Shown here piece by piece: positions 27,504 to 32,733 of a DNA stretch of 63,645 nt. The stretch spans positions 1-63,645 of the forward strand of contig CAXTTL010000005.1 in NCBI GenBank assembly GCA_964247135.1, in the 5' to 3' direction. Each line of letters begins with the position of its first letter. The first letter of the stretch is position 1. The notes beneath the pieces were generated by a model. It had not been told where the DNA came from and searched no databases. It was given only the letters and a program-made list of their open reading frames with translations. Source of the stretch: an uncultured Deinococcales bacterium. Lineage in GTDB: Bacteria > Deinococcota > Deinococci > Deinococcales > JAAFIG01. Position numbers and translations under genes: made by a program.

Positions 27504-28823
27504 ATGCACTTTCACCCACCAAAGCCAGTGTTGCTTCACCAAGTCAGCGCGGTGGCTTGCCTTAGCCTGATGGTGCTTTTGGGGGGTTGCAACACCGCAA
27601 AAATGATCGTTGCCCCAACCGTTGAAACGATCCCTTTAACCACAGCATACCCAAATCCAGACGTGATTGGCACGGTCACGCTACAAAATGCTGACACGAT
27701 TGCCAGCCTGGAAAAACGTTTGAACGGCACAGTGGTCAACTGGCAACCGAGCCAGCAATACGCCGTGCTGGGTTTTACACAGGCTGCGGCAAAAAACTTG
27801 CCAACGGACGTTCAAACTGAAACCAACATCACCTCATTTGTCGGTGGTGGAAGCCCTGCGGTCATGGACGGACGCTCGGGCATGTGGGCATTTGGACGTA
27901 GTGGGATGTGGGCATTTGGACAAACTGCAATGTGGGCTGAAGGTGTGTATCAAGCCGTGCCTGAGAATACACAACTTTGGGAACAAGTGCATTTGCAGGC
28001 AGGTCAAGCGCTTGCTGCAAACCTCGGTAAAGGCGTTAAAGTAGCAATTATCGACACTGGAATTGACCTCAAGCACTCAGCTTTTTCGGGCATTTTAGCC
28101 CCAGCAAATGAACAATGGGATTTTGTCGGCAACGATACCGTGCCCCAAGAAGAAGGCACAATGGGCATGGGCGGTTATGGACACGGAACCAACGTGGCGG
28201 GAATTGTTCGTCAAATTGCACCTAAAGCAACCATCTTGCCGATTCGGGTGCTGGATGCTGCCGGGCAAGGACGGGTTCTTGATGTGGCTGCCGCCATCGA
28301 ATGGGCAATTAAAAAAGGGGCGAACATCATCAACCTCAGCCTCGGTACTTCACAATATTCGTCAATTATTAACAATGCCATCAACCACGCCAACAACTTT
28401 GGAATTTTTGTGATTTCGTCCGCTGGCAACGACAATAGTTCCAGTGTCAGTTTCCCAGGCAACCGTGCTTACGAACGGATTGAACGGGTCAGCGTTGGCA
28501 GTGTCGAATCCAACGATCACCGCTCGAGTTATTCCAATTACGGCTGGCAAGTCGAAGTTGCCGCCCCAGGCAGCATGGTTTATGGACCCGCCCCAGAAAA
28601 TCAACTGGCAGCTTGGTCGGGCACTTCTCAAGCCGCTCCCATGATCTCGGGAGCTTTGGCATTGGCGTTGGGCGAAAAACTCAAACCCACCATCAACAGA
28701 ATCAGCTTGCTCGAAGAGCTTATGAATCACAGTGCGCTGGTGTTGCAAACACCAATCTATCAGCAACTTGGTCGGGGACGACTGGATGTTGAAGCCTTCT
28801 TAAACTGGGTGGTGTTTCGTTAG
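27504..28823 (+). CDS. S8 (subtilisin-like) serine peptidase, lipoprotein
   Basis: Lipobox LLGGC; triad IIDTG, HGTNVAG, SGTSQAAP; oxyanion AGND. Confidence 0.93.
   Translation: MHFHPPKPVLLHQVSAVACLSLMVLLGGCNTAKMIVAPTVETIPLTTAYPNPDVIGTVTLQNADTIASLEKRLNGTVVNWQPSQQYAVLGFTQAAAKNLPTDVQTETNITSFVGGGSPAVMDGRSGMWAFGRSGMWAFGQTAMWAEGVYQAVPENTQLWEQVHLQAGQALAANLGKGVKVAIIDTGIDLKHSAFSGILAPANEQWDFVGNDTVPQEEGTMGMGGYGHGTNVAGIVRQIAPKATILPIRVLDAAGQGRVLDVAAAIEWAIKKGANIINLSLGTSQYSSIINNAINHANNFGIFVISSAGNDNSSSVSFPGNRAYERIERVSVGSVESNDHRSSYSNYGWQVEVAAPGSMVYGPAPENQLAAWSGTSQAAPMISGALALALGEKLKPTINRISLLEELMNHSALVLQTPIYQQLGRGRLDVEAFLNWVVFR
27870..27941 (+). repeat. 3 x 24-nt coding repeat GRSGMWAF/GRSGMWAF/GQTAMWAE in the S8 protease
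   Basis: Read directly in DNA and protein, just upstream of the catalytic domain. Confidence 0.85.
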
Positions 28824-28828
28824 CACCC

Positions 28829-30775
28829 ATGCAACCATTCACCGCCAATGCCCAGAACCGACTGACCGAACAGGCTTGGCAATTGCTGAAAATTGCCGAG
28901 GAAAACCTGAGCAAACAACCAGATATCGCCCTACAACAATTGCATTATGCGATAAGTTTGGGTTCAATAGATTTGCAAGTCAGGGTGAAAGCGTTGGTAA
29001 TTCAAGGCGAAATCGAACTCAACCAAGATCAGTACTTGGTCGCCAGCCAAACTCTACAGCAAGCACTTTTTCAAAGCGCATTGGGCAAATACACCAAACT
29101 TGAACTCGATATCCACATGCTGCTGGGCAAAACTTTTTATCGCCTAGGCAACCTGAGTCAAACCTTAAGCGAGTTTGAGGAAGCTGTTGATCTTGCCAAC
29201 CAACTTCAAAATCTCGAGGTTCAAGCTTCTGCCTACAGTGGAATTGCGAGTGTCCAATATGCCAAAGGCGAGTACCAAAAATCGTTAACCTATTTGCGCA
29301 AAGCAGAAAAAATTCAATCCCAATTTGAAAATCAGACGCAAGCCACCAAAACCGTTATTAACATTGGGTTGCAATATATTGAATTGGGCGAATTTTCCAA
29401 GGCGTTAAAAAATTTATTCCGAGCCTTAAAGCTGACCCAACAAAACCAAAACGACAAAGCCACCGAAGGCACGTGTTTACTCAATATTGGCGTGACATAC
29501 CAAGAATTAGAAGAATACCAACGGGCACTCGGGTTTTACGAAAAAAGTTTAGAGATCGCAACCTCGATTGGTCATTTATACATGCAGTGCAATTCTTTGT
29601 ACAACTTGGGATCGGTTCATTCAAAACTTGGATCACACGAGGCTGCTTTTCTTGTTTTGAATCAATCGTTAGAGCTGGCTCGAAATCATCACCTTTTACA
29701 ACTTGAAACTCGAGTCCTAGACAGCTTAGGTCTGGCTTTTCAGGCGGTCAATGATCTGGCTGCCGCAATTGACATGCACTTGAAAGCCATCAAACTTTCG
29801 CAAACGATTGGTGACATTGAATGCGAAATTGACGCACGAATCAACATCGGTTTTGAATACCTTCAAAGCAGTAACCTCGACCATGCCCGAAACCACCTTG
29901 AACATGCGCTCGAGTTATCGATCAAAGTCAACCGTAAAAAATCGATTTGCAAATCCCATGAATTGTTGGCACAAGTCTATGACTTGTTTGGTCAATCAGA
30001 GAAAACAATTGACCATCTGAGACGGCAGCTTTTTTTTGAACAAGAACTTGCCAAAGAGCGGACTGACCGTCAAGTTCAAAATCTTGCAGCGCAACTCGAA
30101 GTTGAACGGTCAAGACACGAAAATGAACTTTACCGATTGGGCAGCCAAGCAGCAAAAAAAGCCAAAGAAAAAGCTGAAAACGAAGTCCGTGAACGCACAC
30201 AGCAACTCGAGCAAGCTCAACTGGAGGTGGTTGAACGCCTTGCAATTGCTGCCGAATACCGTGATGACGTGACTGGAAAACATGCCCTGCGGGTTGGACA
30301 GTATTCGGCATTGATTGCTCAAAAATTCGGACAAGATAACTCGAGCGTTGAATTGTTGCGCCAAGCGGCACGCCTGCATGACGTTGGTAAAATCGGGATT
30401 CCCGATTCGATCTTGTTAAAACCTGGCAAGTTAACCCCAGAAGAACGCAATTTTATGCAAACACATACGCTTATTGGGCAACGCATTTTGTCAGGTGGTT
30501 CGTCTGAAATGTTATGCCTTGCAGAAGAAATTGCGATTACCCATCATGAACGTTGGGATGGCACCGGTTACCCTTACGGTTTGGGTCATGAAAGCATTCC
30601 AATATCTGGTCGCATCGTTGCTGTCGCCGATGTGTTTGATGCTTTAATGCAAACTCGTCCATATAAACCCGCTTGGACAAAAGAACAGGCTATTGCTGAA
30701 ATTCAACGCCAATCAGGACATCAATTTGACCCCGAGGTCGTTGAAGTTGCACTCGAAATTTTTGAGGCACTTTAG
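28829..30775 (+). CDS. TPR-repeat HD-GYP phosphodiesterase (probable c-di-GMP turnover)
   Basis: Long TPR array, then HDVGKIGIPDSILLKPGKLT, HHERWDGTGYP, DVFDAL..RPYK. Confidence 0.92.
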   Translation: MQPFTANAQNRLTEQAWQLLKIAEENLSKQPDIALQQLHYAISLGSIDLQVRVKALVIQGEIELNQDQYLVASQTLQQALFQSALGKYTKLELDIHMLLGKTFYRLGNLSQTLSEFEEAVDLANQLQNLEVQASAYSGIASVQYAKGEYQKSLTYLRKAEKIQSQFENQTQATKTVINIGLQYIELGEFSKALKNLFRALKLTQQNQNDKATEGTCLLNIGVTYQELEEYQRALGFYEKSLEIATSIGHLYMQCNSLYNLGSVHSKLGSHEAAFLVLNQSLELARNHHLLQLETRVLDSLGLAFQAVNDLAAAIDMHLKAIKLSQTIGDIECEIDARINIGFEYLQSSNLDHARNHLEHALELSIKVNRKKSICKSHELLAQVYDLFGQSEKTIDHLRRQLFFEQELAKERTDRQVQNLAAQLEVERSRHENELYRLGSQAAKKAKEKAENEVRERTQQLEQAQLEVVERLAIAAEYRDDVTGKHALRVGQYSALIAQKFGQDNSSVELLRQAARLHDVGKIGIPDSILLKPGKLTPEERNFMQTHTLIGQRILSGGSSEMLCLAEEIAITHHERWDGTGYPYGLGHESIPISGRIVAVADVFDALMQTRPYKPAWTKEQAIAEIQRQSGHQFDPEVVEVALEIFEAL

Positions 30776-30829
30776 CAATTGGTTTTATAAAACCACTTGG
30801 TTGCAATTGAATTAAGATACGGATATTAC

Positions 30830-32083: not shown

Positions 32084-32413
32084 TCAATATTATGTTTAAA
32101 TTTGTGCCTACCGAACTTGTTTGACTTTTGTTTGTCATCGATTTCTTGCGGCACAACGAAATGATCTGTTCTCGAGTTTTAACATTTGGCATAGACTCCA
32201 TTTTGTTTGAAGTGTTCAATTTGCATTTGTCAGATGCATTACCCTAACACGGCTTTATTGATATCGCAGCAGTTCTGATAATTTGCAAAAACCTGTCGGC
32301 ATTTGCAATTCCTGATTGCTAAAATGTTGACTTCTGAACGAAGGCATGGTTAGGATAGTCTGTCCCACAAAAATTATGATTGTGCGATTGTTAAAGCATA
32401 AGAGGGAGTTCAC

Positions 32414-32662
32414 ATGAACAGATTGTCGTCTTTTGGTCGTTCTTCATCCGAATCCTCGCGGTTGGGCAAGGTTCTTATCGGTCTAGCAGTTTGCGTTTTG
32501 GCAGGGACTTCAGCTTTGGCTGGTCGTAGTGGTATGTGGGCTGACCGCGCACCAACAAAAATGATTGAGGGTCGCAGTGGTATGTGGGCTGACAGTGCAC
32601 CAACAAAAATGATTGAGGGTCATGGTCAAATGAAGATCATTCGCAAGCACAAATCAAGGTAA
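32414..32662 (+). CDS. Secreted repeat-containing precursor peptide (putative signalling peptide)
   Basis: AGAGGGAG RBS; signal peptide ending ..TSALA, followed by 2 x GRSGMWAD(R/S)APTKMIE; own terminator. Confidence 0.8.
   Translation: MNRLSSFGRSSSESSRLGKVLIGLAVCVLAGTSALAGRSGMWADRAPTKMIEGRSGMWADSAPTKMIEGHGQMKIIRKHKSR
32522..32617 (+). repeat. 2 x 48-nt tandem coding repeat
   Basis: 32522-32569 and 32570-32617 are nearly identical. Confidence 0.9.
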
Positions 32663-32692
32663 AGTTCTACCCTTCAATAATTTTGCTATTCG

Positions 32693-32733
32693 TTCAGCCT
32701 CTAACCACTTCTTGGCGCAGAGGCTGAATTTTT
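32693..32733 (+). terminator. Intrinsic terminator after the peptide gene
   Basis: TTCAGCCTCT...AGAGGCTGAA followed by TTTTT. Confidence 0.7.

Follow-up and report, generated by a model that had tools for sequence, protein, structure and literature searches.

Tandem tryptophan units at the propeptide junction of Deinococcota subtilases suggest an undescribed peptide-signalling system

Peptide pheromones that are sensed by cytoplasmic tetratricopeptide repeat (TPR) proteins are regarded as a trait of the Bacillota. Subtilisin-like proteases of family S8 (subtilisin, Epr and Vpr) mature the Phr peptides, and ComS and SHP are the short-precursor peptides of streptococcal systems. Short repeated peptides are also excised by subtilisin-like proteases from multi-copy precursors, such as the cyanobactin precursor PatE with PatA/PatG and the pro-hormones of fungi and animals, and in the maturation of subtilisin itself the C-terminal end of the propeptide is the pro/mature junction. 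We know of no established theme in which peptide signalling is wired directly to cyclic di-GMP (c-di-GMP) enzymes. Among the points made in PMC11343458 are that extracellular proteases process propeptides and that tandemly duplicated pheromones occur, and part of PMC10518010 describes leaderless communication peptides. Here we analyse a 63,645-nucleotide stretch of DNA (the window) from an uncultured Deinococcales bacterium, in which an S8 lipoprotein carries short tandem tryptophan-containing units (W units), the heptapeptide of these units recurs in a small open reading frame (ORF) of 82 residues, and the gene directly after the protease encodes a TPR protein with an HD-GYP output domain. 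The window belongs to a metagenome-assembled genome (MAG; G000) of 5.09 Mb in 386 contigs, which is 84% complete. It was compared with two congeners (G005 and G003) and with other genomes of the family, including G006 and G008 (19 family genomes in total); kin genomes such as these are non-independent samples. That the W units are functional peptides is well supported by selection, by independent free-standing genes and by regular gene neighbours, and the findings as a whole suggest an undescribed peptide-signalling system in Deinococcota.

The protease gene (27504–28823, forward strand) encodes a subtilisin-like lipoprotein of 439 residues with a Pfam Peptidase_S8 domain (E = 9.1e-44; 150.3 bits against a cut-off of 21.8). 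Its lipobox cysteine is Cys29, the propeptide spans residues ~50–118, and the catalytic domain begins at ~150 and contains D184, H227 and S375; these three residues, C29 and N309 are invariant among 16 sequences. The Asp–His–Ser triad in this order and the N-terminal propeptide domain are the features of an S8 pro-enzyme. In the AlphaFold model (pTM 0.81) the propeptide residues 50–118 fold confidently, and residues 119–149 have pLDDT values below 50 and lie between two confident domains. The best Foldseek match of the model is unautoprocessed pro-subtilisin E (3whi, E = 2.7e-25, 399 columns), and Tk-subtilisin is matched as well. Three tandem 8-residue units, GRSGMWAF, GRSGMWAF and GQTAMWAE (27870–27941, forward strand), flanked by AVMD and GVYQ, occupy the linker between propeptide and catalytic domain; because the repeats lie in the disordered segment 119–149 and the protein aligns with pro-subtilisin, the units can be placed at the pro/mature junction. 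Matches of the protein to the peptide-maturation proteases QhpE and PatA in NCBIfam are weak and below threshold, and it is not a member of the cyanobactin PatA/PatG family (TIGR03895, 64.7 bits against a cut-off of 421.05).

The W repeat is a property of the S8 family. All nine S8 paralogues of G000 carry a W repeat of their own directly before the catalytic domain, with units such as GGSIAAWA and TGRSAWA (three copies each), GGRSVWL/GGRSAWA, GRMSSWAS (two copies) and W-S-T-W-G types. The best S8 match in each of 19 related genomes also has one, mostly as 2–5 tandem copies (that of L019 is loose and imperfect), and the units include GSVSAWAS, GGRSNVWA and DGSLGLWA (four copies each), GGKISMWA (three) and GGLSTIWS (five). 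When 185,579 species genomes were searched, 25 of the 80 best S8 loci also matched the N-terminal part of the protein (23 loci titled Deinococcota and two untitled MAGs, referred to as the 25 Deinococcota loci); W repeats are present in all of these except L067 and L073, which have no clear tandem W repeat, so that the count is 23 of 25. The common pattern is therefore one of 2–5 tandem units of 7–8 residues in the disordered linker of propeptide and catalytic domain of Deinococcota S8 lipoproteins. The preliminary description of this DNA, made from the sequence of the window, overlooked the tandem units of the protease as a general feature of the family, and they are more likely than the small ORF to be the main peptide source.

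Codon usage within the arrays indicates that the encoded peptide is what has been kept. Between the units of 33 genes, 373 of 781 same-residue codon pairs use different codons, against 81 residue differences, most of which fall at the edge of the first unit. This combination of synonymous divergence with few residue changes argues that the unit peptide has been maintained by selection and is not merely the result of recent slippage. Some S8 arrays show a two-unit (48-nt) period, like that of the small ORF. The S8 proteins of L009 and L052 are 93% identical in their catalytic domains, yet each of the four unit copies has two residues that distinguish the two proteins (GGRSNVWA and GGRSSAWA), and their alternating copies retain distinct synonymous codons, which implies that the residue change spread through the array with a two-unit period.

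The module is also present in cultured species, namely D. radiodurans, D. marmoris, D. alpinitundrae and D. psychrotolerans. In a record of a D. radiodurans isolate (L134), an S8 protein with two copies of a 9-residue W unit plus a spacer is followed by a TPR protein, a transposase and an HD-domain protein. Judging from an inferred locus-tag match, this arrangement probably corresponds to DR_A0342, which according to a part of PMC11219805 is split by an insertion sequence; apparent matches to DR_A0341/0342 in PMC8779699 were KEGG pathway numbers and were discarded. Just upstream of the W-repeat S8 gene of D. radiodurans lie kynU and kynA (L134, 1789–3881), which belong to tryptophan breakdown, and the S8–HD pair of D. 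psychrotolerans (L135) is preceded by genes for an Opp/Dpp-like ABC importer and an Xaa-Pro peptidase; both placements may be coincidental.

The regular neighbour of these proteases is a TPR sensor. In the window, it is a putative cytoplasmic protein of 648 residues (28829–30775, forward strand; HD_5, E = 1.3e-37; TPR_12, E = 3.4e-29) that starts 5 nt past the stop codon of the protease gene at 28823. The TPR array occupies residues ~1–400 and is joined by a coiled coil to an HD-GYP domain (476–637; 129.6 bits for HD_5 against a cut-off of 27.2) that contains the HD dyad (H517, D518) and, at 572–582, HHERWDGTGYP, which agrees with the HHExxDGxGYP signature and predicts a phosphodiesterase. H517, D518, H572, H573, E574, G578, G580, Y581 and P582 are invariant in 10 homologues. 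Within the genus, the TPR part (61–63% identity) diverges faster than the HD-GYP part (78%).

A TPR protein adjoins eight of the nine S8 paralogues of G000, the exception being C78. The outputs of these partners are varied: two carry HD-GYP and two GGDEF domains, one is a histidine kinase, one is a hybrid kinase followed by a receiver–HD-GYP gene, one has TPR only and one is cut by a contig end. In the 20 best loci, the window included, a same-strand TPR gene lies within 165 bp downstream in 17, and in the other three the sequence runs on for less than 230 bp; a TPR gene is present at 15 of the 25 Deinococcota loci, downstream sequence is missing at three and no TPR gene was seen at seven, counts that in both surveys come from a single query protein, by which divergent arrays may be missed. 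The association of S8 protease and TPR sensor noted in the preliminary description is thus a widely conserved pair. A hydrophobic segment, present in the S8 protein and the small ORF, is absent from the TPR/HD-GYP protein of the window (maximum KD19 1.31) as well as from its 10 homologues and six paralogue partners (maximum KD19 ≤1.68), indicating that the TPR partners are cytoplasmic while the protease is exported.

W units also occur in genes of their own. The heptapeptide GRSGMWA occurs exactly four times in the 10,181,860 six-frame residues of the G000 assembly, against 0.0084 copies expected from its residue frequencies, and is therefore not a chance motif. Two copies are in the protease gene (nt 27870 and 27894, followed by the degenerate GQTAMWAE) and two in the 82-residue ORF (nt 32522 and 32570), so that the six-frame count bears out the distribution first reported. 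This ORF lies 330 bp from a divergent gene for an MFS transporter (30830–32083, reverse strand), and the coordinates agree with the earlier account of the layout, in which the HD-GYP gene begins 5 nt after the protease and the transporter diverges from the small ORF. The transporter appears to be DHA3/EntS-like (MFS_1, E = 3.7e-26, 92.3 bits against 33.4; MFS_3 PF05977, E = 2.6e-10, 39.8 bits against 27). Its NCBIfam match to TIGR00900 stays below the cut-off (182.2 against 319.6), weaker ones are to EntS (75.9 against 324), Tet(V) and Mef, and homologues are named 'DHA3 family, macrolide efflux protein' by JGI.

Among the 19 family genomes, orthologues of this transporter are found only in G000, G006 (68% identity) and G008 (56%), and the MFS proteins of the congeners reach only 36% identity to it. 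Exactly these three genomes have W-peptide genes beside the transporter, and the proposal of a separate peptide gene next to a transporter accordingly holds in all three of its carriers. In G006 and G008, which represent two other genera, tiny genes of 13 residues with strong Shine–Dalgarno sequences, each ending in a W unit, lie directly upstream of the MFS gene on the same strand, between it and a MalT-like TPR/BTAD regulator. G008 has seven (MKKIRKGRSAWAG, MKKIRKGRSVWLG, MKKVRKGRAVWAG, MKKIRKGQRAWTS, MKKIRKGRSAWAT, a TTG-start gene ending in KKIQRGKAAWSG, and MKKIRKGRRAWST) and G006 has three (MKKILKGKSAWSG, and MKKIRKGASAWAG twice). The DNA pattern of these genes was found in two of 301 Deinococcales genomes, and in a relaxed form in two of the 19 family genomes, with no control hits; every match falls at the MFS loci of G006 and G008. 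The C-terminal 7-mers are S8-type units. A back-translated GKSAWSG pattern occurs four times in G006, three times in the junction of its S8 protein (C520) and once in a tiny gene, with no control hits, and this is a second, independent case of a unit common to a protease and a small gene. The G008 peptides GRSVWLG, GRSAWAG and GRSAWAT equal units of S8 paralogues of G000.

The metagenome context of the MFS orthologues added nothing in a first scan and one irrelevant locus (28% identity) in a second. Near the arrays we also observed a 48-residue ORF with a start resembling a signal peptide (G008:C18; L141, 5701–5847), a 60-residue ORF in G006 with a Shine–Dalgarno sequence that ends in LSTWAS, resembling a W unit (G006:C591; L140, 2757–2939), and an M3 oligopeptidase fragment downstream of the G008 transporter on the opposite strand. 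The preliminary description had the peptide transported back by the MFS protein, which is unlikely for a transporter of the apparent DHA3/EntS efflux type. Export is more likely than import, given the probable efflux-type family, the leaderless 13-mers alongside it and an 82-residue precursor that has its own predicted signal peptide.

Our best reading of these observations, held tentatively, is that the units are peptides released by the protease and sensed by the TPR proteins, with the small ORF and the transporter as an added source of GRSGMWAD. The S8 enzyme would cut at the W units during its own maturation and so free them, and it would probably also cut the small precursor and the other free-standing precursors. 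The freed peptides would build up outside the cell, re-enter it, and bind to the TPR array of the cytoplasmic sensor whose gene directly follows that of the protease; in the window, where the sensor is a predicted HD-GYP phosphodiesterase, c-di-GMP hydrolysis would then depend on the level of GRSGMWAD. The MFS gene and the small ORF would represent a lineage-specific addition in G000 that supplies the ancestral unit. A wider form of this reading, to which we give less weight and regard as no more than plausible, is a peptide code of the Deinococcota, D. radiodurans included, in which subtilases carry their cognate pheromone in the pro-region and paired TPR sensors pass it on to c-di-GMP synthesis or breakdown or to a phosphorelay. 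A complex prediction of TPR residues 1–440 with small-ORF residues 37–82, run without controls, scored 0.02 and counts neither for nor against binding. G000 encodes 23 Opp/Dpp-type (SBP_bac_5) binding proteins, which makes peptide uptake possible, no more.

Several observations weigh against the signalling reading. The small ORF has no homologue among 5.8 billion clustered proteins, 1.84 billion representatives and 40 relatives, and the orthologous loci of both congeners (G005:C78 and G003:C806) contain neither it nor the transporter gene. In G008, a genome at 91% completeness, five S8 units were found, and the peptides of the tiny genes equal none of them. The locus has no peptide importer linked to it and is known only from the assembly of a MAG at 84% completeness, and we infer from sequence the cleavage at the units, their release and uptake, the TPR binding and the effect on the enzyme. 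Seven of the 25 Deinococcota loci, mostly longer S8 forms with W-S-T-W-G-type units, and the G000 paralogue C78 have a W repeat and no TPR neighbour, so the repeat needs no TPR partner. Four S8 homologues from outside the Deinococcota (L075, L076, L083 and L090) have a short junction motif: Ideonella and two proteobacterial MAGs have one S-x-W-[AS]-x-G at the corresponding position, and a Pyrinomonadaceae MAG has a short array of three SWS[IL]GG units, with no TPR neighbour flagged in any of them. This short motif fits an origin of the repeat as an autoprocessing site, and suggests that the junction motif is older than its amplification.

These last points also fit a purely proteolytic role. 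The units might be a series of autoprocessing or pseudo-substrate sites by which activation of the S8 enzyme is timed, the free-standing genes might encode competing substrates or inhibitors by which the protease is tuned extracellularly, and the TPR protein might merely be co-expressed and sense something else; the position of the repeats is exactly that of the C-terminal end of a subtilisin propeptide, and repeats or single motifs exist at loci that have no TPR neighbour. We consider this unlikely but regard it as the most serious alternative. It leaves unexplained the regular pairing, often only a few bases apart, with a cytoplasmic TPR sensor whose output is interchangeable, as well as the leaderless 13-residue genes lying between a TPR/BTAD regulator and an exporter. 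Nor does it account for protein copies that stay identical despite saturated synonymous change, since a single good cleavage site would suffice. Even if it were true, the repeat would be an unusual maturation device of a subtilase.

The small ORF (32414–32662, forward strand), a putative secreted precursor, begins with MNRL and has a hydrophobic stretch near its N-terminus (KD19 1.97 at residue 17). Its predicted signal peptide covers residues 1–36 and ends in SALA, with A-L-A directly before the first GRSGMWAD; this unit (32522–32545) is followed by RAPTKMIE, a second GRSGMWAD (32570–32593), SAPTKMIE and GHGQMKIIRKHKSR. A Shine–Dalgarno sequence (GAGGGAG, 32402–32408) lies 5 nt ahead of the ATG. 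A hairpin resembling a terminator, with an 11-bp stem and a U-run (32692–32737, forward strand), comes after the stop codon and has a folding energy of −19 kcal/mol (z = −3.93; none of 200 shuffles was as stable); it was overlooked by a simple terminator scan because its loop exceeds 8 nt. A promoter-like site (TTGACT, 18 nt, TAGGAT; 32327–32356, forward strand) lies 58 nt upstream and scores 9 of 12 in a consensus scan, and such sites are no more frequent in this region than in shuffled sequence (4 against 3.4), making the promoter evidence weak. From the Shine–Dalgarno sequence, the hydrophobic N-terminus, the A-L-A site and the hairpin, the ORF looks like a gene.

A word-indexed protein search with the small ORF returned only itself, and four repetitive proteins of 347–677 residues from a full HMMER search were rejected as unrelated. 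Against the 40 relatives, its only meaningful matches are to the protease repeats of G005 and G003. The preliminary description expected small ORFs to co-vary with the junction repeat at homologous S8/TPR loci and took their absence as a refutation. The other eight S8 paralogues of G000 have no second gene carrying their unit, and junction-repeat searches in the own genomes of G011, G019, G024 and G040 returned S8 genes only; read strictly, the S8/TPR loci do lack such ORFs. In G000, a GRSAWAG match in C245, which has no nearby stop after it, and C-terminal-type matches in C27 and C172, which are out of frame inside real genes, were judged to be due to chance.

The two congener loci give the likely history of the small ORF. 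Their S8 proteins are 81% (G005) and 79% (G003) identical to that of the window, and both loci have the order regulator, S8, TPR–HD-GYP, aminotransferase, with the last two genes 6 and 28 bp apart. The 2.1-kb difference between G000 and these loci consists of the transporter gene and the small ORF, so the four genes first described as a cassette are not a conserved unit. As identity is higher between G005 and G003 (87%) than between either of them and G000, a single gain or a single loss explains the difference. In G005 the protease carries GRSGMWAD three times and in G003 twice, after one GSSGMWAD; GRSGMWAD is also the form found in the small ORF, whereas the G000 protease has two units ending in WAF and a degenerate third. 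Our best reading, again a tentative one, is that GRSGMWAD is the ancestral unit and that the G000 protease units drifted away from it. A 24-nt tandem duplication at 32854–32901 (21 of 22 core bases identical) takes in the start codon of the aminotransferase, and G003 is single-copy there; this duplication, at the right edge of the stretch with transporter and small ORF, may be the footprint of the event behind the difference.

Could the small ORF instead be a functionless recent by-product, such as a piece of the protease junction that was captured or converted and is open by chance, with only the S8/TPR pair of importance? Its lack of homologues and its absence from the relatives and the orthologous loci would fit, as would its two 48-nt units, whose identity at 44 of 48 nt marks a recent internal duplication, and an AGT serine codon that it has in common with the second unit of the G000 protease. 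However, the codons of GRSGMWA differ between the two genes (GGT CGT AGT GGT ATG TGG GCT in one gene; GGA CGC TCG GGC and GGA CGT AGT GGG at the start of the copies in the other). The best local DNA match of the two genes (19 of 21 nt, score 32) is below the maximum of codon-shuffled controls (35), so that the likeness is one of proteins only, as the preliminary description had held; on this basis we rejected the idea that the small ORF derives from the protease gene at the level of DNA. Compared with the G005 protease units, five of six degenerate codons differ and all eight residues are identical. That eight of eight residues are kept twice, that the ORF has a Shine–Dalgarno sequence, a signal peptide abutting the first unit and, after the stop codon, a strong terminator hairpin, and that it adjoins the one MFS family that has W-peptide genes in both other carrier genomes make a by-product improbable.

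Some DHA3 efflux pumps are regulated by leader peptides. That the small genes simply serve the transporter, as bioactive (antimicrobial or RiPP-like) precursors with an MFS exporter or immunity protein or as leader ORFs controlling it, is very unlikely: the tiny ORFs do lie directly upstream of the MFS gene on the same strand, the DHA3 family includes efflux pumps and the S8 protein has its sub-threshold matches to QhpE and PatA, but no modifying enzyme lies near the free-standing peptide genes, the PatA/PatG score is far below its cut-off, seven differing leader ORFs with strong Shine–Dalgarno sequences would be unusual for attenuation, the small ORF of the window is divergent from the transporter and cannot be its leader, and identity with S8 junction units would be unexplained.

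Divergent from the protease gene, on its other side, lies the gene for a SARP-like BTAD–AAA(STAND)–TPR regulator (23803–27522, reverse strand; AAA_16, E = 2e-17; BTAD, E = 1.4e-15; TPR_12 and TPR_MalT), whose position is kept in G005 and G003. Its listed TTG start overlaps the start of the S8 gene, and alignment with orthologues suggests that the true start is near 27354. G000 encodes ~30 relatives of this regulator, several of more than 1000 residues, a large expansion of STAND/TPR regulators. Between it and an IMPDH-like gene, two ORFs of ~300 residues (21544–23521) have no Pfam match, and their G005 counterparts start with lipoprotein-like signal peptides. Downstream of the small ORF, the aminotransferase gene is followed by a reverse-strand group (34086–35922) that encodes a MucB/RseB-like protein (Pfam), a probable anti-sigma factor and an ECF-type sigma factor. 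V/A-type ATPase genes are also present in the window and, taken with the related loci, place the organism in Deinococcales.

If the signalling reading is correct, it would describe a diderm phylum in which peptide quorum sensing acts through a second messenger, and a signal that is encoded, in a new way, within the very enzyme that frees it. It would offer ligands for many orphan TPR–GGDEF, TPR–HD-GYP and TPR–kinase sensors, and a natural panel of peptide/receptor pairs, nine in G000 alone, in which specificity could be studied. With separate pheromone genes next to an MFS exporter, some lineages would be able to raise the dosage or to engage in cross-talk between strains. The subtilase family is described as expanded in Deinococcus in part of PMC1978522, and these enzymes would gain a role. 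The literature, supplementary files aside, yielded no description of S8 W repeats, of S8/TPR pairing or of peptide signalling in Deinococcota, and the string 'Deinococc' is absent from the main texts of two RRNPP surveys.

Among known systems, the solved pro-subtilisins (S8 with an I9-type propeptide) are matched by the window protease in fold, in domain order, in the intact triad and in the position of the repeats at the C-terminal junction of the propeptide, and it differs from them by its ~30-residue disordered insert of tandem units and its lipoprotein anchor. The multi-copy precursors resemble it in holding several identical or nearly identical short peptides in one precursor, whereas here the carrier is the protease itself and there are no heterocyclase or macrocyclase genes. 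With the streptococcal Rgg–SHP, ComRS and LCP–RopB systems, the arrays of G008 and G006 have in common tiny genes that lack a signal peptide, C-terminal 7-residue segments that look like the active part, and proximity to a regulator that contains TPRs and to a dedicated exporter. In contrast to those systems, the candidate receptor is a MalT-like STAND/TPR/BTAD protein, the exporter would be of the MFS type and not an ABC pump, an array holds up to seven variant genes, and the units also occur inside S8 proteases.

The RRNPP(A) systems (Rap-Phr, NprR, PlcR, PrgX and AimR) combine a secreted precursor, proteolysis to a peptide of 5–8 residues and a cytoplasmic TPR receptor, and the present system would share this plan, with the processing step as a predicted one; it also has many paralogous pairs with different peptides per genome. 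The window protein is a TPR-array receptor candidate (TPR families at 3.4e-29) that has no hydrophobic segment, and the Pfam and NCBIfam matches of the TPR/HD-GYP and BTAD proteins are generic TPR and TPR_MalT models only, with none of the RRNPP families. In RRNPP(A) the propeptide gene adjoins the receptor gene. Here, the small ORF is 1.6 kb from the TPR/HD-GYP gene with the transporter in between, the tiny genes of G008 and G006 come directly after a TPR/BTAD regulator, and at most loci the S8 gene would itself be the adjacent 'peptide gene'. Unlike those of RRNPP(A), the outputs are HD-GYP, GGDEF, histidine kinase or BTAD/STAND modules and not HTH or Rap domains, the units lie mostly inside the protease and not in an adjacent small gene, and the host phylum is diderm, in contrast to the Bacillota. 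By sequence the system belongs to neither group, and in its logic it is closest to RRNPP(A) and to the streptococcal leaderless and short-precursor systems.

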